Source: Vibrio celticus
GTDB taxonomy: Bacteria > Pseudomonadota > Gammaproteobacteria > Enterobacterales > Vibrionaceae
NCBI RefSeq assembly: GCF_024347335.1
Contig: NZ_AP025464.1
Span: forward strand, 982,517-1,006,516
Direction of reading: 5' to 3'
Length of the DNA: 24,000 nt
In this document: positions 3,958 through 20,657 of the stretch, piece after piece
Numbering within the stretch: the first letter of the stretch is position 1
How the letters are laid out: the number at the start of each line of letters is the position of its first letter
Made by a program: the position numbers and the translations under genes
The notes under the pieces: model-generated
What the model was told of the DNA's origin: nothing
Databases searched by the model: none
What the model saw: the letters and a program-made list of their open reading frames with translations, nothing else

Positions 3958-5216
3958 TTACTTACAAGTCTCTTTTGACCAATTCACACCATCATCTGAA
4001 CACTCAAATAGACTTGTTCCATTTTGGTAATGATAACCTTTAGTCCAGCTACCATGAGAATCTCTAGACGTTATCGTTTGAGTATAATCAAACGGCGTAT
4101 TTTCAATGTACGCATACTTATGTCGGCTCCAGCTGTCAGAACCATATGAACTGTTGTCATTAAAATCTACCGATAGGTAGTTGAGTGCATCAAAGTCGCT
4201 GCGCGACACACTATCCAATGAATCACCGAGATTAACCCACTCTGGATGTGGTGCGTTATTCTCAAAATTAAATTTCGCTTGTACTTGGGTAAACTGATCT
4301 TTGTAGTCACCGACAAGATCTGCCGACAAGGTTTGCATGAATCCAGCACCGACATTTTGACGTGAACAACTGTCCCAATCAGGTTGTTTAGACCAACCAC
4401 GGTTCAACACACCAAAGGTCGTGAGTGAGTTAGGTAAAACCTGTTGCTTGATGGTCTCTTTCACCGAACATGAATATTCCGTTCCATCACTATCCAATGA
4501 GAACCAAGCTTCTTTGTCATATTCCAAGCCATTTTTCTTTTGGCTATTACGCTCAATATGCTTATTTAACGCCAGTTCGGTCTGCAAATCAGCGGACACT
4601 TCATGTTCAATAACAATTAGCTTGTCCGCGGTCATTACTGTTTTAACTTTATACCACTTATTAATTTCGTTCTTCTTAGTGTAATCCCAATGCTCCCAGT
4701 AATAATCAACATAGGCTTGCTGGGCTGTTGGGTTCTCTTTTTGAATCTCTTTCGTCTCTTGATAGGACTTTTTAATGGCAGGCATCATCTTCTGCGCTAA
4801 ATCGTAGAGCTCAGTGTTTTGATCTTTAACGAAATCACCATACAAGTCCTCGACTGCGATGTTGTATCGGTTCGCAATTCGGAAGTCATGCTCTTTCACA
4901 TTTTGGATAATGCTATTTTGGGTATTCACGGCTTGCTTCAAAGCAGAGCAACTGTTTAAACCACCTTTATACAAGTCGGCTTGGATCTCATTCCATAACA
5001 CGGTCGTAAGTGGCGTAGTCGACTTAATTTCTTGCTCAGAACTCACCGTCATGACTGGCGGAAATATTAACTGATAAGGTTCAGTAATCGGTGAGTTTGG
5101 GCTGTCTGCATCAATAGCGCCTACTGGCACATTCAATACGATGGGTGCATAGTCCATACAGTCTGAGTTAGAGCCCGTCAAAGATAGCTCATAGCTGCCC
5201 TCATGGTCCGTGACAC
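3958..5216 (-). pseudogene. Lipoprotein gene, C-terminal portion (separated from its 5' end by IS insertion)
   Basis: The ORF track starts at a TTG at 5181, but the frame stays open up to the IS boundary (…VTDHEGSYELSLTGSNSD…). There is no start codon or signal peptide of its own. It continues the frame of 8417-8628 once the IS and one target duplication are removed. Confidence 0.85.
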
Positions 5217-5382
5217 CAGGGCAAGATCATGAAAACCCCTTATGAAATAAGGGATGACGTGAAGTCATATTTTCACTAATTAGATACTGAAGTCACAATA
5301 ATCTCAATACATCCAAGATCGATTTGATGATCAGATTTAGGTGTGATCATATACTGTTTTTTAACAGCAGATATTTAGCCTA

Positions 5383-6295
5383 ATGAACGGATTAAGCCTT
5401 TTGGACCATATTTCAGTTATTCGAGACCCTCGCCAAGCCTGGAAAATAGAGCACACGCTAACCGACATTATCTTCTTAACAATTGCAGCAGTGATTGCTG
5501 GTGCTGAAGGTTGGGAGGATATTGAAGATTTTGGTGAAGATAACTTGGAATGGCTTAGACAGTATGGTGATTTCAAACAAGGCATACCAGTACACGATAC
5601 CATTGCCCGAGTTATCAATCTTATTTCCGCCAAGCAACTGCAACGATGCTTTACTGCGTGGATGAAAGACTGTCATGAGGTGACTGAGGGTGAAGTGATT
5701 GCTATCGACGGCAAAACTCTCAGAGGCACATACAACAAAGACAAGCGTTGTGGTGCAATCCATATGGTTAGTGCGTTTAGTGCTGCAAATCAAGTTGTGT
5801 TAGGGCAGGTTAAAACAGCAGACAAAAGCAATGAAATCAAAGCGATCCCCGAACTGCTTGAAATGCTTTCCTTACGAGGTTGCTTAGTGACGATTGATGC
5901 TATGGGATGCCAGAAGGATATAGCTGAAAAGATAGTCGGCCAAGATGCAGATTACCTCTTAGCGGTAAAAGGTAATCAAAAACGATTGGAGCAAGCGATT
6001 AGCCAAGTCTTTAATTCTAGTATGCTTAATAGTTTTGAAGGTGATAAATACGTCACTCAAGAGAAAGGACATGGTCGTACAGAAACGCGTTTGAGTATGG
6101 TTGTTCACAATACAGATTTCTTAGGCGATATAGCGCTTGATTGGGCGGGACTCTCCACCATTGGTATGGTCGTTTCAATTCGTCAAGAAGGTGATAAGCC
6201 AGCAGAAACAATGCAAATCAAGCACTACATAAGCTCAGCAAAACTGACGGCTAAAGCTTTACTAGAGAGCACGCGAGCACATTGGAGCATTGAAA
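5383..6295 (+). CDS. ISAs1-family transposase, exon 1 (interrupted by the intron)
   Basis: The N-terminus is MNGLSLLDHISVIRDPRQAWKIEHTLTDIIFLTIAAVIAGAEGWEDIEDFG, followed by AIDGKTLRG and TIDAMGCQKDIA, all typical of ISAs1 transposases. Family-like sequence ends at …RAHWSIE and the reading then runs into intron sequence. Confidence 0.85.
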
Positions 6296-6863
6296 GTGTG
6301 CCGCAGGCACATAGGTTAGCAGCATAAGGATGTGTTTCTAGTCTTGAGCATAAGCTCATGAAGAGATGGTGGTAGGTCCACCGAAGTCTGCTGTCGGAAG
6401 CTGGCTTCAAACCACTTCAAGTGGCTGTCATTAAGAGTGATGGTCATAAGCGTTGAAGTAAAAGTACGAACTCAAGTTCGGCAGGTAGGGTACAAAGAGA
6501 TGAGTTATAGCGAACCTATGTTGACGCGTCGTAATCCAGAGACTGACATCAAAATCGAGGGCGTTTCTATCTCTCGAGATAAGTTTGCAGGTTAATTCCG
6601 AATGCTGTGTAAGCGGTGTCCGGCGTATAGTGGGCATGACTTTGTATCGGGCTCTTTGTGGGAACTGCGGGAACCAGTCATCACAATGCTAAGGAAGAAG
6701 TACAAGTAACTGAATTTATGAGTATGAGAGTACCGATGTGTGATACTGGGACGGAGCAACTCGTAGTAGTGTTGAAGTGTTTGTAATGAACATGGAGCGA
6801 AGGGGTTGCGTCAAGCTGCTTGCATGTTTAGCTCAACTACCAAATGGTAGGAGGAAGCTATAG

Positions 6864-8111
6864 ATGGAAGCAAAACCATTTACCATTTCAAAGTGGGCAG
6901 TGAAGCACGCCTACGAATTAGTTAAAGCTAATAAAGGAAGTGCAGGAGTTGATAATCAATCTATTGAAGGTTTCGAAAGAAATCTAAAAGGTAATCTTTA
7001 TAAGATCTGGAATCGATTATCTTCTGGCACCTATTTTCCACCTCCAGTTAAAGCGGTAAGTATACCGAAGAAAAGTGGAGGAGAACGGATTTTAGGTATA
7101 CCAACGGTAAGCGATCGGATCGCACAAATGGTCGTAAAACTTGAATTTGAGCCAAAGGTTGAGCGGATCTTTTTGCCAGACTCATATGGGTATAGACCTA
7201 ATAAATCAGCGCTTGATGCTATAGGTGTCACTCGTAAGCGATGTTGGAACTATAACTGGGTACTTGAGTTTGATATTAAAGGGCTGTTCGATAACATTCG
7301 GCATGATCTGTTACTTAAAGCGGTATATAAACACACCAATCTCACTTGGGTAAGGTTGTATATAGAGCGCTGGCTAGTAGCACCGATGCAAATGGAAGAT
7401 GGCGACCTCAAAACTAGGCAGATGGGGACACCGCAAGGTGGCGTTATTAGCCCTGTATTAGCGAACCTATTTCTACATTATGTTTTTGATAAATGGCTAC
7501 AAAAGCATTTCCCCAAAACATTATGGTGCCGTTATGCTGATGATGGTTTGGTTCATTGTAATACTGAAAGCGAAGCTCAGCAGATGCTTGAGGCTCTGAA
7601 AGCTCGTTTTGAGGATTGTGGACTTGAGCTCCACCCCACAAAAACCAAAATAGTATATTGTAAAGATGGGAGTAGAAAAGGTGATTCGGAACATACCAGT
7701 TTCGACTTTCTTGGCTATACCTTTATGCGTAGGGTTTGCAAAAACTGGAAACGCAATAGCTTATTTTTAAGCTTCTCGCCGGCAGTGAGCAAATCAGCAT
7801 TAAAATCAATGAGATTGAAAATTAGAAAGTTACGAGTGCGGATGAAAACAGAACTTAGCATAGCGCAAATGGCTAAGTGGTTAAACCCAATGATAAACGG
7901 GTGGATCAACTACTATGGTCGCTACTATCGCTCGGCACTGTATGGCATGTGCAGGCACGTAAATAAAGCTCTGGTTCGTTGGGCGAGACGAAAGTTTAAG
8001 CCATTACGACGTCACAAAACACAAGCAATGAGATTCTTGGAAAGGATTTCAGAGCAGAACCCCCACTTGTTTGCCCATTGGAAGCAAGGAATGTTAGGTG
8101 CGTTTGCTTGA
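6864..8111 (+). CDS. Group II intron-encoded reverse transcriptase/maturase (no endonuclease domain)
   Basis: The 415-aa ORF has RT motifs (KKSGGERILGIPTVSDRIAQ, YGYRPNKSA, FDIKGLFDNI, GTPQGGVISPVLANLFL, RYADDGLVHC). It also has a maturase X region (INGWINYYGRYY). The protein ends soon after the X domain and has no HNH or Zn-finger segment. Confidence 0.92.
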   Translation: MEAKPFTISKWAVKHAYELVKANKGSAGVDNQSIEGFERNLKGNLYKIWNRLSSGTYFPPPVKAVSIPKKSGGERILGIPTVSDRIAQMVVKLEFEPKVERIFLPDSYGYRPNKSALDAIGVTRKRCWNYNWVLEFDIKGLFDNIRHDLLLKAVYKHTNLTWVRLYIERWLVAPMQMEDGDLKTRQMGTPQGGVISPVLANLFLHYVFDKWLQKHFPKTLWCRYADDGLVHCNTESEAQQMLEALKARFEDCGLELHPTKTKIVYCKDGSRKGDSEHTSFDFLGYTFMRRVCKNWKRNSLFLSFSPAVSKSALKSMRLKIRKLRVRMKTELSIAQMAKWLNPMINGWINYYGRYYRSALYGMCRHVNKALVRWARRKFKPLRRHKTQAMRFLERISEQNPHLFAHWKQGMLGAFA

Positions 8112-8114
8112 TGG

Positions 8115-8185
8115 GAGCGGTATGAATTGAGAGGTTCACGTACCGTTCTGCGAGAGGCTGTGGGGGAAGCTCCCACGGTCTACTC
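8115..8185 (+). ncRNA. Group II intron domains V and VI
   Basis: Domain V is 8115-8148, GAGCGGTATGAATTGAGAGGTTCACGTACCGTTC. It has a 10-bp lower stem containing the AGC triad, a 2-nt bulge (8137-8138), a 4-bp upper stem and a GAGA tetraloop. Domain VI is 8152-8185, a long helix with unpaired A8182 as the candidate branch point. Confidence 0.85.
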
Positions 8186-8188
8186 ACC

Positions 8189-8406
8189 ATCAGATGCACT
8201 GGCGATTAGACGTAGGTTTTAAAGAAGATGAATGTCGGATTCGTCGAGAGCAAGCTGGTGAGAATTTAGCAGTTATAAGACATATAGCTTTAAATCTGCT
8301 GACGGAAGAAACCAGCTTCAAAGCAGGGATCAAAAGAAAGCAGAAAAAAGCAAACCGTAGCAATAGCTACCTTTCGCAAGTCCTTGCAGTACAAGGGGCT
8401 TCGTAA
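8189..8406 (+). CDS. ISAs1-family transposase, exon 2
   Basis: It reads (N)[37 protein letters not shown]…, the conserved ISAs1 C-terminal block. The stop at 8404-8406 lies inside the right inverted repeat. Exons 1 and 2 total 1131 nt, giving 376 aa. Confidence 0.85.
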
Positions 8407-8416
8407 TCTTGCCCTG

Positions 8417-8628
8417 TCCGTGACACTGCTAGGCTCACCTTCATCTAATACGCCATTATAATTGATATCTAGAAACGCGGTCGCCCCGGAAATATACCCG
8501 TCAATGGCGACACCTTGTAAGGTTCTCGTTTGAGGAGCAGGAGCACTTGTGTTGCTACCACCGCCTCCTCCGCCACAAGCCGTAAGGCAACCAGCTATAA
8601 GTGCGATAGAAATAAGCCTAAGTTTCAT
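8417..8628 (-). pseudogene. Lipoprotein gene, N-terminal portion (signal peptide and lipobox)
   Basis: The ATG at 8628 has an AGGA ribosome-binding site. The sequence MKLRLISIALIAGCLTAC-GGGGGGSN… has lipobox LTAC. Native sequence runs to …EGEPSSVTD and then enters the IS inverted repeat. The remaining residues of the 112-aa track ORF are encoded by the IS. Confidence 0.85.
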
Positions 8629-10290: not shown

Positions 10291-11677
10291 CATAGACAGG
10301 ATCTTAAGCTCTAAGCTATTTATTTAGATAGAAAAAAGGCTTCATTTATGATCAGATAATCGTCGCCAAACAAACCACCCATATCAACCGTGAAGCCGAT
10401 GACGATTATCTCCCTACAAAAGCAGTTTAAGCAATTCTTTAATGCTGATAGCCTTCAAAAAATGGCGAAAAGTACAGGACTTATGAAGCGATGTCGGGCT
10501 ATCTTACCCGACCAGCTAGTAGTAAGCCTAGTGGCCGCTTTGAGCAAAGGAAACTGCTCATCTATTGCCGATTTACTAAGGCAATTCAATGGGATGTGCT
10601 TAAGCGCTAAAAATACTGTGGCTTATAAGCCCTACCATAACCAGTTAAGAAAAGAAGAATTTCCGATATTCATGCGCCAATTGGCCATGCGAGCGATAGC
10701 TCAGTTTGCTCGCCAGCAGAGTGCCAACCTACCAGATAAACTCGCCACCTTTGATGATGTGCTGCTTCAAGATGGTAGCTCTTTCCACATTCATCGTGAC
10801 CTTTCGAACGTTTACCCGAGCCGATTTAAACGCAATCCAGCCGCAGTTGAATGCCATATGACAATGTCTTTAAAAAGCTTTTCTCCAGTCGCAATGAGCA
10901 TCAGCGCTGATACAGCATCAGAAAGAGACTTTTGCCCGCCCCAAAACAATGAGTAACAAATTGTTGTTGGCTGACGCAGGGTACCCTGACTTCCAATTCT
11001 TTACTGAGCTTGAACTGTATGGTGGTTTCTATATTTTCGAGGAGCAAAGTCCCTGAATCCTCATGTTATAGAAGCGAGAAACGGTCAGGGCCGGCATTTA
11101 TCTAAACTAGAAGGAAAGAAGCTCAAAGACATCACTCGAGGTACTAATCGCTCACAGGTACTCGACCTTAAAGTTCGTAGTGGTAAGCAAGAATTTAGAG
11201 TGGTAAGACGTTGGTTTGCCGAAGAAAAGCGATTCTGTATTTGGTTAACTAACTTGCCTTCAGGTACCTATACTGCTGATGACATAATGGCGATCTACCG
11301 CTGTCGATGGCAGGTGGAGTTGCTTTTTAAAGAATTAAAATCTCACACAAACTGGCAACGATTTGTCACCGCACAAAAGGCCATCGTTGATGGGCTTATC
11401 TGGGCCAGTTTACTCTCGCTGATCATCAGGCGCAGTACTGCGCTTCAGATAATGCCATCGGTCTCGCTGTTTAAGGCGGCAAAAAATGTGGATGTGTGGC
11501 TGTTGCCCATATTTGAATGTATCAGCCACAAGGCATGGTCAGAAATAGGTAATAAACTGGAATGGGCCTCTAGCTATATATTTAAGAACGCACAAAAGTC
11601 CGCCCAGAGGAAGTCAAAGAAAAACATCACGTTAGACGGGATTTATGCTGGTCTTAATGCTTAAGGTTCAGTCTATG
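10291..11677 (+). mobile_element. IS4-family insertion sequence, copy A (1387 bp)
   Basis: The ends are CATAGAC…GTCTATG. It is nearly identical to the reverse complement of 15935-17320; I found 2 substitutions and 1 single-nt indel. The flanking 10-mers are aaactggcta on the left and tagcggccat on the right. Confidence 0.9.
10390..11664 (+). pseudogene. IS4-family DDE transposase, copy A, broken by two frameshifts
   Basis: The first D (LLQDGSSF) is in frame 1 and ends at TAA 10954-10956. The second D (MSNKLLLADAGYPDF) is in frame 2 and ends at TGA 11054-11056. The YREK motif (YRCRWQVELLFKELK) is back in frame 1. The shifts map to a C4/A4 run near 10939-10946 and a T4 run at 11034-11037. Confidence 0.8.
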
Positions 11678-11991
11678 TAGCGGCCATAGCTTCCCTCCCA
11701 AATATTAATCATTTGAAAATGCGTTACCCTAACTCTTTTAAAGGGTCGTATTACGTCAAATGAGTAATAAAAATCAAGTTACATCACTGCTGTTAATTAT
11801 TTTTAGTTTAATCATTTGCCTAAATAGCTAGATTAGCAAGTCTGGCTCTCAATTTATCTCAAAGTTTTTACGACCACTGTTTATTAAGGCTACTTTTATA
11901 AGAGCTAGAATTAGCGTTATAAGAACTGGGCTAACCTTAAAGTGATGAGTTAATCGGTTTGTGGCTTTGTTGAATGTCGTGAGAGGGTAGA

Positions 11992-12828
11992 ATGAGAAAG
12001 TGTCGATGGTTAGTCTTATTAGTCTGTTTTGTATTCGCTGGTTGCGGGACTAAACTTGCCTACAACAATATAAGCTGGTTTGCGGTTAGCTATATTGAAG
12101 ACTTTGTTTCTCTATCCAACAGTCAAGAATCAGAGCTCGAAGAGCGCCTCGACTTATTACAGCAATGGCACAAAGAAACTCAGCTACCTCTGTATATCTC
12201 GCAATTAGAAGCGATTCAGAACGTAGATCGGTCGGATATGAATCCCGCTTTTATTGTGGGTCAAAGTGAAGAAACTAAAGAGCATATTCGCTCAATCGTT
12301 AATAAGTTCGCTCCAGATATTTACGCCTTGAGTATGCAGCTTAGCCCTGAGCAAGACAGAGAATTTTTAAAGAACTTTCGTGAAAAGCAGCAAGACTATT
12401 ATGAAGAAAGGTTGTCGTTGAACGATGAAGATTCGAGAGAGCGATACAGAACTAGAATAGAAGAGCGGGCAGAGCGGTGGTTAGGTTCGGTGTCTAAAGA
12501 ACAAAAACAGATTATTCTGGCTTGGTCTCAAGAGTGGGTAAACACCAATAACAGCTGGCGACAATATCAAAACAACACCTATCAAGAGCTAACGACGCTG
12601 ATGGCAAAGAAGAGCGACCTGCATATTGCTCAGCCGATTATCATGAAATTGCTTTTAAACAATGAAGCTTATTATCCTGATGAACTTGAGTCACAACTCA
12701 ACCAAAATATGGAAACATCAGCCAAGTTTTTAGTAGATATCGCCGCGACCAGCAGTAACAAGCAGTGGGCGTATTTTATGAATGAATTAGAAAGCCTCAA
12801 AGGAACGTTGAAGTCATTGCAAGAGTAG
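11992..12828 (+). CDS. Putative lipoprotein of unknown function (DUF6279-like)
   Basis: The 278-aa ORF has a signal peptide with lipobox FAGC (MRKCRWLVLLVCFVFAGCGTK). The rest is a charged, helical-looking body. The family name is from memory and unverified. Confidence 0.7.
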   Translation: MRKCRWLVLLVCFVFAGCGTKLAYNNISWFAVSYIEDFVSLSNSQESELEERLDLLQQWHKETQLPLYISQLEAIQNVDRSDMNPAFIVGQSEETKEHIRSIVNKFAPDIYALSMQLSPEQDREFLKNFREKQQDYYEERLSLNDEDSRERYRTRIEERAERWLGSVSKEQKQIILAWSQEWVNTNNSWRQYQNNTYQELTTLMAKKSDLHIAQPIIMKLLLNNEAYYPDELESQLNQNMETSAKFLVDIAATSSNKQWAYFMNELESLKGTLKSLQE

Positions 12829-12840
12829 AGCGTCCCTTTT

Positions 12841-12872
12841 AAAGGCTAGCGGTTATTGTCGAGCTAGCCTTT
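12841..12872. terminator. Hairpin between convergent genes (possible bidirectional terminator)
   Basis: The sequence is AAAGGCTAGCggttattgtcgaGCTAGCCTTT. It has a 10-bp perfect stem and a 12-nt loop. There is no long U-tract beyond the stem, so confidence is modest. Confidence 0.4.
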
Positions 12873-12900
12873 CATCCCACTTTAAGGTGAATTTCGGAAC

Positions 12901-13524
12901 CTAACCCCTGTTGCTCATCAGTAGTTTTGGAATCGAACCTTTGGCTGTCTTCGATATTTTCTGCATCAATTGGAAGCTCGGCTGTTGAATACCGTGGTCA
13001 CTCTGCAGCTCATCGATCATTAATAACCACAACCTTGCTGTCATTTCTGAATCGGCTAATGCTCGGTGGAAAGTGCCGTCGTTATCTATTTGCTTGAATC
13101 GAACTAGGTCGCCCAACTTATGGGTCGGAGCGTCTTGGATTAGCCGACGAGCAATCAACATTGAGCATGCAAACTGTCCATTGTAATCACGCCCAATATT
13201 GTCTAATTCTGCGTCGAGAAAGCGTTTATCAAACGAGGCATTATGAGCCACAAGCTGACTGTCTTGAATAAAGCCTGCAAACTCATCCATCACTTCACTG
13301 CAACTGGCCGCGGTACTTAGCATTCGGTTAGTAATGCCGGTGTAGCTTTCAATGAAGCCACTCACACGAAACCCTGGGTTCATGAGTTGTTGGAAGGTGT
13401 CGACGACTTCGCCGTTAACGAGTTTTACCGCACCGATCTCAATCGCTCGATCGCCCATATTGGGTGATAAGCCTGTGGTTTCGAAATCGAGAACGATAAC
13501 GGAATCTGCGGAGTTTGAAGCCAT
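12901..13524 (-). CDS. DEDDh 3'-5' exonuclease, DnaQ/epsilon-like
   Basis: The 207-aa ORF has Exo I (VLDFETTGL), Exo II (LVAHNASFDKRFL) and Exo III (HRALADSEMTARL) motifs. An AGGAA ribosome-binding site precedes the ATG. Confidence 0.88.
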   Translation of the reverse strand: MASNSADSVIVLDFETTGLSPNMGDRAIEIGAVKLVNGEVVDTFQQLMNPGFRVSGFIESYTGITNRMLSTAASCSEVMDEFAGFIQDSQLVAHNASFDKRFLDAELDNIGRDYNGQFACSMLIARRLIQDAPTHKLGDLVRFKQIDNDGTFHRALADSEMTARLWLLMIDELQSDHGIQQPSFQLMQKISKTAKGSIPKLLMSNRG

Positions 13525-13594
13525 CGTGTTTCCTAATTGCTGTTTGGGAGTATCGCTTTATATGGGGCGTTTGGTGTTGCTATGGGTAAATCCG

Positions 13595-13996
13595 TTATTT
13601 GCTAGTGCCGATAACAAGCTCAGTGTACCCCGTTGAATCGTCATGCTCTCTGTTGAAGGTCAAAGTATCGTAGCGGTGAACGATCAGTTCAGCCGTGGTT
13701 GCGATAATCGTCCCTTCAAGCAAATGCCCACCAATCACATTGCCATTTTCATCAGCAACGGATATATGAACATGCTGGTGGTTTGGGGTTAGCGTTGCCA
13801 TCACCGAGACTATTTCGAACGGAGCTTGGACGAGCTTGGTGTTGTTCGCATTAGCTAGACGAATATTGAGCTGAGAGACACAACCAACACAAGACGCGAT
13901 AGAGCCTGCCGAGATGTTGTGTGTGGTCACTAACCTTTGGATCTCAAGCTTTAGGTCTTGCCCGCGGGTTAATCTCGTTGCGATAGGAGTGATCAT
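13595..13996 (-). CDS. PPC (DUF296) domain protein
   Basis: The 133-aa ORF has the PPC-like pattern (…ISAGSIASCVGCVSQLNIRLA…HVHISVADENGNVIGGHL…). A GAGG ribosome-binding site precedes the ATG. Confidence 0.75.
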   Translation of the reverse strand: MITPIATRLTRGQDLKLEIQRLVTTHNISAGSIASCVGCVSQLNIRLANANNTKLVQAPFEIVSVMATLTPNHQHVHISVADENGNVIGGHLLEGTIIATTAELIVHRYDTLTFNREHDDSTGYTELVIGTSK

Positions 13997-14031
13997 CTTA
14001 TTGCCTCAGCGTTATATGTATTTCAAAGAAC

Positions 14032-14059
14032 AAAACGAAGCCACATAGGGCTTCGTTTT
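14032..14059 (-). terminator. Rho-independent terminator downstream of the rhlE-like gene
   Basis: The sequence AAAACGAAGCCacatagGGCTTCGTTTT has an 11-bp stem and a 6-nt loop, with T-rich sequence on both sides. Confidence 0.6.
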
Positions 14060-14129
14060 ATTTTCATTTTGGCTAACGCGACTTTTCTTTTGGTTAATGC
14101 AACTTTGCATTTTCTGTCGCTGAAATTAC

Positions 14130-15326
14130 TTAGTCTTGTTGCTGTTCTCTTTTCTTCTTAGGAACGAAGTTCAATACTGAGATTGGCACTTCTTTGCGTG
14201 GTTCGAAACCTTCAACAACGCGACGTTCAATCAAGTGACCCAGACGCTTTTCAATAATGCACAGGTTTTTGAAGTTATCTTTCGATAGGAAAGAGATCGC
14301 TTCGCCAGATGCATCAGCACGGCCTGTACGACCAATACGGTGAACATAGTCATCTGCAGGGAAAGGCATGTCGTAGTTCACTACGCGGCTTAGGTTGTCG
14401 ATATCGATACCACGAGCAGCAACCCCCGTCGCGACTAAGTATTTTAGGCGGCCTTTCTTGAAGTCAGCCAAGATCTTTTCACGAATTGCTTGGCTACGTC
14501 CACTGTGGAAAGCTTCAGCTTGAATGCCACGTTTCTCAAGTTGAGCAACCAACTTAGCCGCGCCATGTTTAGTTTCGATAAATATAAGCGCTTGGTCCCA
14601 GTTACCTTCGGTAATCATGTGGCTCAATAGTGCTGACTTACGGTCTTTATCTACGGTTACCAACCATTGCTCAATGTTCGCTTTAGAAGCGTCAGTTTTG
14701 GCAATTGAAATCTCTTCTGCTTCACTGATAGCACTTTTCGCTAGCGCACGCACTGGCGTTGAAAGCGTTGCTGAGAACAGTAAGTTTTGGATGTCTTGTG
14801 GTAAACGAGCAATGATCTTGTTGATGTCTTCAATGAAACCCATGTCTAGCATGCGGTCTGCTTCATCTAGAACCAGTACTTCCACTTCATCAAAGTGAAC
14901 AGCACGTTGACCGTACATGTCGATCAAACGACCTGGTGTTGCCACAAGAATGTCGACACCTTCAATCAAGCGATCTTTCTGGTGTTGGTAAGATACGCCA
15001 CCGTACATCGCTAGTGATGTTAGGTTTAGGAACTTCGCGTACTTAGTGATGTTCTGTTCAACCTGAATCGCAAGCTCACGAGTTGGTGTCAGAATAACAG
15101 CGCGAATACGTTTTTTACGTTGTGTTTCACCTTTACTTAGCATTTCTAAGATAGGGAGAACAAAGCTCGCAGTTTTACCTGTACCTGTTTGTGCTGCCGC
15201 AATAAGGTTCTTACCAGAAAGTACAATCGGAATTGCTTTTTCTTGAATAGAGGTTGGCTTTTCATAGCCTTGTTTTGCAACGGCTTTAACAATAGGTGAG
15301 CTTAATCCAAGCTTGGAAAATGGCAT
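14130..15326 (-). CDS. rhlE: DEAD-box ATP-dependent RNA helicase, RhlE-like
   Basis: The 398-aa ORF has a Q-motif (GYEKPTSIQ), motif I (AQTGTGKT), DEAD (VLDEADRM), SAT, and motif VI (HRIGRTGRA). Confidence 0.9.
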   Translation of the reverse strand: MPFSKLGLSSPIVKAVAKQGYEKPTSIQEKAIPIVLSGKNLIAAAQTGTGKTASFVLPILEMLSKGETQRKKRIRAVILTPTRELAIQVEQNITKYAKFLNLTSLAMYGGVSYQHQKDRLIEGVDILVATPGRLIDMYGQRAVHFDEVEVLVLDEADRMLDMGFIEDINKIIARLPQDIQNLLFSATLSTPVRALAKSAISEAEEISIAKTDASKANIEQWLVTVDKDRKSALLSHMITEGNWDQALIFIETKHGAAKLVAQLEKRGIQAEAFHSGRSQAIREKILADFKKGRLKYLVATGVAARGIDIDNLSRVVNYDMPFPADDYVHRIGRTGRADASGEAISFLSKDNFKNLCIIEKRLGHLIERRVVEGFEPRKEVPISVLNFVPKKKREQQQD

Positions 15327-15733
15327 AAGTTTCTCGGTATGATTTGGCTAAATAGCGATGGAAAGGTTTAACAATCTTATACAAGGATAAGATTAATGGC
15401 GGCATTCTACCATGTTGCTTGTATACCGCTAGTAACATAGACACTTTAGTTGGATAATACTGGCTCAATAGCACAACGATAAGGCAGGAATGTAGAGCAA
15501 ATAACAAATAGCAAATCCGGTGGAGGATTAATCTCCCACTTATTTTTGCCACTGAATATGCACGATCAGTGATTATTTTGTTTGCTAAAAGAGGTGTTTA
15601 TCAATTAAGTTGGATCTTGATATTATTTATATCAACAGTTTCATACAGCATATTCCAACTTGAATGAGTAAATAGACCTCCCATTTGGGTTACAGCTATT
15701 CTCGTTCCACTAGACGCTTGATTCGGATATCCA

Positions 15734-15934
15734 TTGAACGACGCTAACTTACGTAGACTTCAGCAGCTTATTGCAAAGTATGAATTAGGTGAAGAGTATC
15801 ACCTAACGATCGATGATCTAGAGCACTCGCTATCGACTTCTCGCAGAAACACTTCGATCATTCTTAAATGCTTATCGGAATATCGCTGGATTTGTTGGAT
15901 TCCGTCCAAAGGAAGAGGGAAGCTTAGCCAGTTT
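15734..15934 (+). pseudogene. sgrR: SgrR-family regulator, N-terminal DNA-binding (SgrR_N/HTH) part
   Basis: The only possible start is TTG at 15734, because an in-frame stop lies at 15719-15721. The sequence NDANLRRLQQLIAKYELGEEYHLTIDDLEHSLSTSRRNTSIILKCLSEYRWICWIPSKGRGKLSQF resembles the SgrR N-terminal domain. The frame then runs into the IS end, and the tail HRLNLKH* is IS-encoded. This fragment and the 10280-8826 part total 1656 nt, giving 551 aa in frame. Confidence 0.8.
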
Positions 15935-17320
15935 CATAGACTGAACCTTAAGCATTAAGACCAGCATAAATCCCGTCTAACGTGATGTTTTTCTTTGACT
16001 TCCTCTGGGCGGACTTTTGTGCGTTCTTAAATATATAGCTAGAGGCCCATTCCAGTTTATTGCCTATTTCTGACCATGCCTTGTGGCTGATACATTCAAA
16101 TATGGGCAACAGCCACACATCCACATTTTTTGCCGCCTTAAACAGCGAGACCGATGGCATTATCTGAAGCGCAGTACTGCGCCTGATGATCAGCGAGAGT
16201 AAACTGGCCCAGATAAGCCCATCAACGATGGCCTTTTGTGCGGTGACAAATCGTTGCCAGTTTGTGTGAGATTTTAATTCTTTAAAAAGCAACTCCACCT
16301 GCCATCGACAGCGGTAGATCGCCATTATGTCATCAGCAGTATAGGTACCTGAAGGCAAGTTAGTTAACCAAATACAGAATCGCTTTTCTTCGGCAAACCA
16401 ACGTCTTACCACTCTAAATTCTTGCTTACCACTACGAACTTTAAGGTCGAGTACCTGTGAGCGATTAGTACCTCGAGTGATGTCTTTGAGCTTCTTTCCT
16501 TCTAGTTTAGATAAATGCCGGCCCTGACCGTTTCTCGCTTCTATAACATGAGGATTCAGGGACTTTGCTCCTCGAAAATATAGAAACCACCATACAGTTC
16601 AAGCTCAGTAAAGAATTGGAAGTCAGGGTACCCTGCGTCAGCCAACAACAATTTGTTACTCATTGTTTTGGGGCGGGCAAAAGTCTCTTTCTGATGCTGT
16701 ATCAGCGCTGATGCTCATTGCGACTGGAGAAAAGCTTTTTAAAGACATTGTCATATGGCATTCAACTGCGGCTGGATTGCGTTTAAATCGGCTCGGGTAA
16801 ACGTTCGAAAGGTCACGATGAATGTGGAAAGAGCTACCATCTTGAAGCAGCACATCATCAAAGGTGGCGAGTTTATCTGGTAGGTTGGCACTCTGCTGGC
16901 GAGCAAACTGAGCTATCGCTCGCATGGCCAATTGGCGCATGAATATCGGAAATTCTTCTTTCTTAACTGGTTATGGTAGGGCTTATAAGCCACAGTATCT
17001 TTAGCGCTTAAGCACATCCCATTGAATTGCCTTAGTAAATCGGCAATAGATGAGCAGTTTCCTTTGCTCAAAGCGGCCACTAGGCTTACTACTAGCTGGT
17101 CGGGTAAGATAGCCCGACATCGCTTCATAAGTCCTGTACTTTTCGCCATTTTTTGAAGGCTATCAGCATTAAAGAATTGCTTAAACTGCTTTTGTAGGGA
17201 GATAATCGTCATCGGCTTCACGGTTGATATGGGTGGTTTGTTTGGCGACGATTATCTGATCATAAATGAAGCCTTTTTTCTATCTAAATAAATAGCTTAG
17301 AGCTTAAGATCCTGTCTATG
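15935..17320 (-). mobile_element. IS4-family insertion sequence, copy B (1386 bp), inverted relative to copy A
   Basis: It is the reverse complement of copy A apart from c16999 (Asn to Asp), g16062 (synonymous) and a T3 run at 16959-16961 where copy A has A4. In the element's own orientation the flanking 10-mers are tagcggccat on the left and aaactggcta on the right, the swap of copy A. Confidence 0.9.
15948..17221 (-). pseudogene. IS4-family DDE transposase, copy B, broken by three frameshifts
   Basis: It has the same two frameshifts as copy A. An extra 1-nt deletion in the A-run splits the first ORF into 102-aa and 94-aa pieces. Confidence 0.8.
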
Positions 17321-19618: not shown

Positions 19619-20657
19619 TTAAGTTTAGAGATAGAGCCACCCCGTTTCGCGTATTTCTTAGTCAATACGACAAGTTTCAGGCATACCTAACCCAGTAAGC
19701 TTGTTCAACGCTTTTATCATCGCGTAAGTTTCACCCACCTGTGCATTGTAATTTCTTAAGCTCAGTTGCCCTCCTAGCAACTGTTTAACTCGATACATCA
19801 CTGTTTCTGAGAGTGAACGTTTGTGGTATCCATACCGCTCTTTCCAATACTTATTTGAGCCGTATAATTTCTGGCAACCCACGGCGAGATTTCGAGGGTG
19901 ACTACGTTCCCAGAAGGATGCCCCTTATCTTGGGGGAATAAGCGCAATGGCTCCCTTAATCTTAATAGCAGCGTGACACGCTCTCGTGTCGTAAGCGCCA
20001 TCACCAGACACCTCAAGGATACTTCGGCGTGTTTGTTTCAGTAAGTTAGGGAGTACTTCTCCATCTGTAACCCTCGATAAACTTAGCTCGGCGGCAATGA
20101 TCTCATGAGTGTTGGTATCGACGGCAATATGAAGCTTTCGCCAGACTCTACGCTTGCCATCCGTCCCATGTTTTTTGACTTTCCATTCACCTTCGCCATA
20201 AACCTTAAGGCCAGTAGCATCAATAGCTAGGTGCTGTATAGCTCCTCTCGTTTTAGTCCTAAATGAAACCTCAACTTGCTTGGCTCTACGACTGATGCAG
20301 GTGTCATGCGGACAACTTAACGGTACATTGGCTAACCTAAATATCGAGTCGATAAATCCTTGAAGCGCTCTCAATGGCATAGAAAAAACTCGTTTCACCA
20401 TGAGTGCTGTCGTGATAGCTAAATCACTGAACCGACGCGGCCTCCCGCGCTTATTCTGTTTACTTTGCGCCCACCCGCTTATTGCTTCTTCATCAATCCA
20501 AAAGGTCAGAGAGCCACGGTTAATGAGTGATTGGTTGTATTGCTTCCAGTTGGTTGTTTTGTAACGAGGCTTAGGCATAGGGCTACGAGAGAGGGTGGAG
20601 GTAGCTGATCAGATCGTAGGTTCTTGATTTAGTTCCATTGAATTACGCAACAAAGCC
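19604..20657 (-). mobile_element. IS5-family, IS903-group insertion sequence (1054 bp)
   Basis: It has 17-bp perfect terminal inverted repeats, GGCTTTGTTGCGTAATT at 19604-19620 and the reverse complement at 20641-20657. It encodes an IS903-like transposase. The flanking 9-mers agtggcggc and caaagcatg differ, so there is no target duplication. Confidence 0.9.
19658..20578 (-). pseudogene. IS903-like transposase with an in-frame TAA stop
   Basis: The sequence reads MPKPRYKTTNWKQYNQSLINRGSLTFWIDEE…ALIPPR-TAA(19927-19925)-GASFWERSHPRNLAV…MYRVKQLLGG…GMPETCRID. Both parts are in the same frame. The total of 307 codons matches IS903 Tnp, and the stop sits where Lys is expected (IPPRKGA). Confidence 0.85.

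Follow-up and report, generated by a model that had tools for sequence, protein, structure and literature searches.

A predicted class D group II intron in the transposase gene of an ISAs1-family insertion sequence of Vibrio celticus

We analyzed a window of 24,000 nucleotides (nt) from Vibrio celticus (contig NZ_AP025464.1, positions 982,517 to 1,006,516), this being the whole stretch of DNA to which the coordinates below refer, and found a nested element in it: a gene containing an insertion sequence (IS) that in turn contains a group II intron. The outermost layer is a minus-strand lipoprotein-like gene (window 3958-5216 and 8427-8628), the IS belongs to the ISAs1 family, and the intron lies in sense orientation within the conserved codons of the IS transposase. 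The parts of the nested element are as follows (IBS, intron-binding site).

5207-5216: left copy of the 10-bp target-site duplication TCCGTGACAC, identical to 8417-8426
5217-8416, plus strand: ISAs1-family IS, 3200 bp in length, or 1307 bp once the intron is subtracted, delimited by its terminal inverted repeats and by intron-free copies
5217-5238 and 8395-8416: terminal inverted repeats of the IS, 22 nt
5383-6295, plus strand: exon 1, transposase codons 1-304 and the first base of Asn305
6296-8188, plus strand: group II intron, predicted to be of the bacterial class D type, 1893 nt, 5' end GUGUG and 3' end ...CUACUCACC
8189-8406, plus strand: exon 2, the remainder of Asn305 through the stop codon, with A8189 as the putative IBS3
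8417-8426: right copy of the 10-bp target-site duplication TCCGTGACAC

Each layer could be removed in silico to leave an intact product. Excision of 5217-8416 together with one copy of the 10-bp duplication restored a 486-amino-acid (aa) minus-strand open reading frame (ORF) with a signal peptide and a lipobox, which matched no Pfam family. Joining of the exons (5383-6295 and 8189-8406) yielded a 376-aa protein that matched the ISAs1 transposase model NF033564 over positions 1-314 of 314 in one stretch (433.9 bits), and this predicted ligation product was identical, residue for residue, to WP_261875708.1, an uninterrupted gene product annotated as "ISAs1 family transposase [Vibrio]." For annotation, this means that two "partial ISAs1 transposase" pieces with a reverse transcriptase (RT) between them represent one nested element rather than three pseudogene fragments. 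In draft assemblies, the same locus was broken at flanking IS elements.

The exact limits of the intron were obtained from intron-free copies of the IS. In the window, exon 1 ends with ...CATTGGAGCATTGAAA at 6295, the intron starts with GTGTGCC at 6296, and exon 2 starts with ATCAGATGCACTGG at 8189. Intron-free copies of the 1307-bp IS were found at eight independent loci with 99.3% identity, gapless over the junction ...CATTGGAGCATTGAAA/ATCAGATGCACTGG (here and below, a slash marks the insertion point), three of these loci being in one complete Vibrio genome assembly (GCA_024347435.1). Two more intron-free copies showed identities of 99.0% and 98.1%, and another, on Proteus terrae plasmid NZ_CP073357.1, was 94.5% identical and read ...CATTGGAGCATTGAAAATCAGATGCACTGG. 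The junction 30-mer was exact in all ten intron-free copies and in the Proteus copy, and the intron-free copies encode Asn at the junction (GAAAATCAG). The 10-bp duplication was present with matching flanks at four of the sites, while the printed flanks of four others differed. Moreover, one draft assembly contains the intron as a contig of its own, consisting of A, 6296-8188, and A. As regards the Proteus terrae plasmid, its IS copy carries a 1-nt deletion (L001 3540-3550; GGTGCATCCATATGG versus GGTGCAATCCATATGG), and the plasmid gene table, from which pseudogenes are omitted, lists no gene for this copy.

The preliminary description of this sequence had left the splice sites ambiguous by 2 nt, preferring 6296/8188, with the Asn codon kept and the branch-point A at -7, over 6298/8190. 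Because the empty sites read GAAA/ATCAG, which is unobtainable from any shifted boundary, the intron is exactly 6296-8188, and the ambiguity is settled in favor of the preferred option. Boundaries shifted by 1 or 2 nt replaced the Asn with Ser or His, mixed combinations of the two options led to frameshifts, and none of these matched the empty sites. Splicing at 6298/8190 (GUGCC...AU), with Ser replacing Asn, has the canonical AU 3' end as the sole point in its favor, but all intron-free copies read GAAAATCAG, the exact Asn-containing protein is on record, the draft contig is composed of A, 6296-8188, and A, and the register of the exon-binding sites (EBS) EBS1 and EBS3 fits 6296/8188 only, so that these alternative sites can be set aside as vanishingly improbable.

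The intron RNA was delineated by covariance models and by comparison with relatives. The Rfam model group-II-D1D4-2 (RF01999) matched 6368-6486 on the plus strand with 93.8 bits (E = 2.9e-18), above its gathering threshold, and Intron_gpII (RF00029, domains V/VI) matched 8113-8188 on the plus strand with 55.7 bits versus a gathering score of 40. A consensus fold was computed with RNAalifold on an alignment of the 5' 575 nt of the intron and 13 relatives. The resulting anatomy, including the intron-encoded protein, was as follows.

about 6301-6670, plus strand: domain I, from the RNAalifold consensus, containing the Rfam D1D4-2 match
about 6671-6752, plus strand: domain II, from the consensus fold
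about 6756-6809, plus strand: domain III, from the consensus fold
from about 6818, plus strand: domain IV, from the consensus fold, holding the ORF of the intron-encoded protein
6864-8111, plus strand: intron-encoded protein within domain IV, RT and maturase, 415 aa, YADD present
8115-8148, plus strand: domain V, a 34-nt hairpin with an AGC triad, a 2-nt CG bulge, and a GAGA tetraloop
8151-8185, plus strand: domain VI, with the bulged branch-point A8182 as the seventh base from the 3' end

The consensus fold of domains I-IV comprised 158 pairs, 93 of them with compensatory changes on both sides, indicating that the domain I-III core expected upstream of the ORF does fold. Domains V and VI, including the bulged A, were kept in 16 relatives, with A8182 unpaired in the consensus fold, and both domains lie where the preliminary description had located them.

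The intron-encoded protein, which is exactly identical in sequence to WP_065676566.1 of Vibrio celticus, contains the domains RVT_1 (E = 1.6e-43) and GIIM (E = 1.6e-15) and matched TIGR04416 over its full length (415.5 bits, cutoff 300). No HNH or other endonuclease domain was matched in it, and just 30 residues follow the maturase domain, in agreement with the earlier claim that the protein lacks an endonuclease. It is 67% identical, gapless, to the protein of the Escherichia coli intron E.c.I2, and its tail ...LFAHW..G..A aligns with those of E.c.I2 and a Sinorhizobium meliloti relative; such a C-terminal extension is a class signature (PMC3552965), and E.c.I2 and E.c.I9 belong to class D (PMC3522654, E.c.I2 in Table S2). 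In addition, three partial RTs of 224-320 aa from Vibrio celticus (WP_261875679.1, WP_261875684.1, and WP_261875695.1) fall in the 90% cluster of the intron-encoded protein and are encoded on a 3.62-Mb contig, suggesting that some intron copies in that genome appear degraded.

Exon recognition was assigned to the following predicted elements.

6564-6570, plus strand: EBS1, UUUCUAU, in the loop of hairpin 6555-6577
6535-6539, plus strand: EBS2, UCCAG
6628, plus strand: EBS3, a single U within a domain I internal loop, its partner being the first base of exon 2 (A+1)
6289-6295, plus strand: IBS1, AUUGAAA, exon positions -7 to -1
6282-6286, plus strand: IBS2, UUGGA, exon positions -14 to -10, taking in the Trp codon of the HW motif

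EBS1 and IBS1 are paired at six of seven positions, with a U.U mismatch at -5, and all seven covary across the family, while compensatory changes occurred at 5/5 EBS2-IBS2 pairs among 14 relatives. Across these 14 relatives, representing seven target types, the 12 pairs of EBS1 and EBS2 were 89.3% paired, versus at most 53.5% in slid registers; a compensatory change was found in each of the 12, and the observed score was reached by none of 500 shuffles. For EBS3, U6628 was the sole alignment column complementing the +1 base in all nine relatives tested. A tenth relative outside this screen (L019) also fits, with G:C, whereas the E. coli E.c.I9-like intron (L029) misfits as its 3' end was called, the call itself being uncertain. 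The target is thus predicted to be read through 13 bp, with seven positions in EBS1, five in EBS2, and one in EBS3. The intron resembles RmInt1 in this respect, for which an EBS1 of 7 bp, an EBS2 of 5 bp, and an EBS3 of 1 bp, and hence a 13-bp target recognition, have been determined experimentally (PMC4075523). In five of the seven target types, positions -13 to -11 within IBS2 read UGG; this triplet is the Trp codon in the ISAs1 targets and in a translated IS3-type target (L024), and L018 has the same GTGTGG. Such a non-degenerate Trp codon may serve as a stable anchor for homing.

The Rfam matches, the covariation, and the identity of the intron-free alleles with the predicted ligation product bear out the proposal that a group II intron lies in sense orientation in the HWxIE/N codons of the ISAs1 transposase, and we consider it to be a complete, full-length, and apparently functional class D intron with a probability of about 0.92. 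Several points weigh against this reading. The 3' end of the intron is CC instead of the consensus AY, although the 5' end GUGUG fits GUGYG. Membership in class D (IIB3-like) is predicted from the nearest neighbors, the domain content, and the IIB-type exon recognition, the call being drawn from those neighbors and not from a reference-set phylogeny. Considering that the -5 position of EBS1-IBS1 was paired in 99% of selected RmInt1 retrohoming events (PMC4075523), the U.U mismatch at -5 suggests that the window IS is less than optimal as a target, and the mismatch could also impair splicing from this IS. Moreover, splicing and mobility in this host are predictions, and the GC skew, dominated by the G-rich intron itself, is uninformative on orientation relative to replication.

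As for the first of these points, the end ...CUACUCACC is common to E.c.I2, the Sinorhizobium meliloti relative ends with ...CUACUCGCC, and a Methylotuvimicrobium subgroup ends with AC. The CC 3' end departs from AY but appears to be a trait of the lineage rather than an anomaly, AY being a consensus and not a requirement. It might also be asked whether the intron is an inactive relic, past splicing or moving, given the partial RTs annotated in Vibrio celticus and the many E. coli genomes that retain mere short fragments of a related intron. However, the 415-aa ORF with its YADD, the RNA domains, and the exon-binding sites are all intact. Two other assemblies, probably from one and the same species or strain as the window, carry copies with 100% identity to the intron, and those in different IS types match it at 98.6-99.5%, making decay of this copy unlikely.

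The consequences for the IS can be outlined from what is established for group II introns in general and published on RmInt1 in particular (PMC3035460, PMC8914252). The intron would have entered the sense strand of the ISAs1 element by retrohoming, between the first and second bases of the Asn codon of HW-x-I-E-N. The IS transcript would be spliced through A8182, assisted by the intron-encoded protein, and the 376-aa transposase would be made from the spliced mRNA only. The excised intron-protein particle would then reverse-splice into empty ISAs1 sites where these are single-stranded at replication forks. Since the protein is without an endonuclease, a nascent strand would prime cDNA synthesis, as the nascent lagging strand does in RmInt1 retrohoming (PMC3035460). 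Translation of the unspliced transposase ends 10 codons into the intron, so the full-length protein requires splicing, and the predicted dependence of transposase production on splicing follows logically. For this IS copy, the overall outcome is probably that it is strongly down-regulated and not left unaffected. We give about even odds to the harsher possibility that the intron, although real, silences the IS, with ligation too inefficient for the window copy to yield essentially any transposase and the copy moving only with transposase supplied in trans from intron-free copies, a view that opposes splicing-regulated mobility and not the identity of the intron. RmInt1 in ISRm2011-2 splices at about 0.07%, and its authors see little chance of transposase translation (PMC3035460); the EBS1-IBS1 mismatch at -5 points the same way, and intron-free copies with an identical transposase in Vibrio genomes could act in trans. 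That the exons are fully open and encode a protein identical to that of active-looking copies could be held against silencing, but it fits a recent insertion and does not discriminate between silencing and splicing-regulated mobility.

Near-identical introns interrupt the same codon of the transposase in three different types of ISAs1 element.

Window IS: HWSIE/NQMHW, IBS1 AUUGAAA, EBS1 pairing 6/7 with U.U at -5
Second Vibrio-type ISAs1: KHWNIE/NQQHW, intron 99.5% identical at the nucleotide level, IBS1 AUCGAGA, C.U at -5
Vibrio breoganii ISAs1: DHWGIE/NSLHW, intron 98.6% identical at the nucleotide level, IBS1 AUAGAGA, pairing 7/7 with one G.U wobble

Because EBS1 and EBS2 are the same in all three copies, the Vibrio breoganii-type IS would be the best-matched target and the window IS a near-cognate one. 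The Vibrio breoganii host transposase (one host compared) is 48% identical to that of the window, whereas the introns are 98.6-99.5% identical, indicating that the intron spread recently; as had been suggested from the window sequence, a conserved multicopy IS thus acts as the homing site, diverged ISAs1 elements being occupied by this intron at one and the same codon. Recurrence of the site in such diverged elements can be ascribed to the near-invariance of HW-x-[I/V]-E, which was invariant in 112 of 114 full-length transposase homologues. A Pseudoalteromonas relative, with a protein 80% identical, occupies the same insertion site and carries a matching EBS1 change. Had intron and IS instead descended together from one ancient insertion, the shared site would be no sign of homing; the common position in all ISAs1 hosts agrees with this, but introns with 98.6% nucleotide identity in host transposases with 48% protein identity do not, and sites still free of the intron are common in this IS, rendering co-descent highly improbable. 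The window intron clearly illustrates how, in nature, a conserved catalytic-motif sequence can let one intron spread among IS-family members that are strongly diverged. For the retargeting of endonuclease-less introns, useful guidance could come from the 13-bp recognition rules together with the near-cognate targets found in nature (AUAGAGA, AUUGAAA, and AUCGAGA).

On a broader and more tentative reading, which we hold possible but doubtful, this class D sub-lineage would be a specialized parasite of the whole ISAs1 family. Its EBS2 would be anchored on the HW motif of the catalytic region, at its non-degenerate Trp codon, while EBS1 tolerates wobble or mismatch, so that one intron could colonize transposase genes down to 48% protein identity. 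The HW motif is present twice, 7 codons apart (HWxIEN..HWxLD), and relatives such as E.c.I2 could then hop between the HW sites by changing EBS1 and EBS3 only. If true, the intron would act as a family-wide brake on ISAs1 transposition. The shared EBS2 was considered as proof of hopping between the two HW sites, but this argument is weakened since a similar EBS2 core is also seen in relatives inserted in IS3-family and other targets, and common ancestry would account for the sharing equally well.

The arrangement itself, a group II intron in an IS transposase and specifically class D introns in ISAs1 elements, is already well documented, and the novelty is limited to the insertion position, the third documented for class D introns in ISAs1 elements, with no new class of system involved. 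The closest characterized relative is E.c.I2 of E. coli, located in the Rhs-associated H-rpt/ISEc1 element of the ISAs1 family and belonging to the same Rfam D1D4-2 family; it was reached through a megablast of the intron against plasmids, which gave a single 85-nt match. E.c.I2 is 1891 nt long versus 1893 nt here, is about 70% identical at the nucleotide level from end to end, and shares with the window intron the termini GUGUGCCGCAGG ... CUACUCACC, a protein without an endonuclease, and the sense orientation in an ISAs1-family transposase at the conserved HWxxENxLHWxLD block. It differs in its site, which lies 21 nt (7 codons) downstream (HWRLD/V versus HWSIE/N here), in its EBS1 (CGUCCAG versus UUUCUAU) and EBS3 (A versus U), and in its host, which is enterobacterial and not Vibrio. 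E.c.I2 is adjoined by an intact sister copy of its IS. Of 5426 complete E. coli genomes, 209 carry full-length E.c.I2-like copies, whose flanks are annotated as "ISAs1 family transposase" (NCBI). According to Leclercq and Cordaux (PMC3522654), E.c.I2 and E.c.I9 target "Rsh IS (=ISEc1-5)" at two different positions, and both published E. coli insertion positions (E.c.I2 and E.c.I9-like) were confirmed here. The E.c.I9-like intron is of the same lineage and likewise associated with ISAs1/H-rpt, but it is inserted after ...GGGAAAGATCACG, which resembles the IS terminal inverted repeat and not a transposase motif, and short fragments of it alone persist in most genomes.

Other known systems share part of these features. 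RmInt1 of Sinorhizobium meliloti (IIB3/class D), compared by its published description, likewise has a protein without a DNA-binding/endonuclease region and resides in an IS transposase gene (ISRm2011-2), but its host IS is of another family and its IBS1 is GAUGAGA. An intron of Sinorhizobium meliloti GR4 (L054), of the Rfam D1D4-2 family to which RmInt1 and the window intron also belong, has a protein 61% identical with a common C-terminal tail, and its 3' end ...CUACUCGCC is closely similar to ...CUACUCACC here. This intron was considered as RmInt1 itself, but its IBS1 is AUCCAUA versus the published GAUGAGA, and it is thus a relative and not RmInt1. E.c.I4, one intron found at a specific position in several related IS elements (IS629/IS911/ISEc16/ISEc31, IS3 family; PMC3522654), shows the pattern of the window intron in three or more ISAs1 types but differs in intron class and in the IS family targeted.

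More distant homes were also observed. The introns of Methylotuvimicrobium buryatense 5G (L011-L014) and those of L007, L017, and L020, with proteins 77-79% identical (the L017 match being partial), share one short repeated target, CGCTGAAAATCTTGGA/AACGGAGCG..AGCGAAGTGAAGATTTTTAGTCCCC, and the sequence farther upstream of this repeat was unrelated in all six loci with it available. Two other introns (L018 and L024), with proteins 62-70% identical, lie in an IS3-family-like transposase at ...W-x-x-D/I-T-Y, in the region of the first catalytic Asp, a habit of insertion at conserved catalytic-motif codons like that of the window intron. As relatives thus occupy IS3-family transposases or other repeats, the lineage as a whole is not restricted to ISAs1.

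A promoter scan of the ISAs1-family IS returned a single match, inside the intron ORF, fewer than in shuffles. Elsewhere in the window, two inverted IS4-family copies of ~1.4 kb (10291-11697 and 15915-17320) are 99-100% identical, each with its transposase divided over two ORFs; the pair flanks 11698-15914, where an RhlE-like helicase and a DEDD exonuclease are encoded, and the arrangement resembles a composite transposon. An IS5-family transposase ORF at 19925-20578 on the minus strand matched positions 1-212 of the 289 of NF033579 (274.7 bits), suggesting that this ORF is probably truncated or split.

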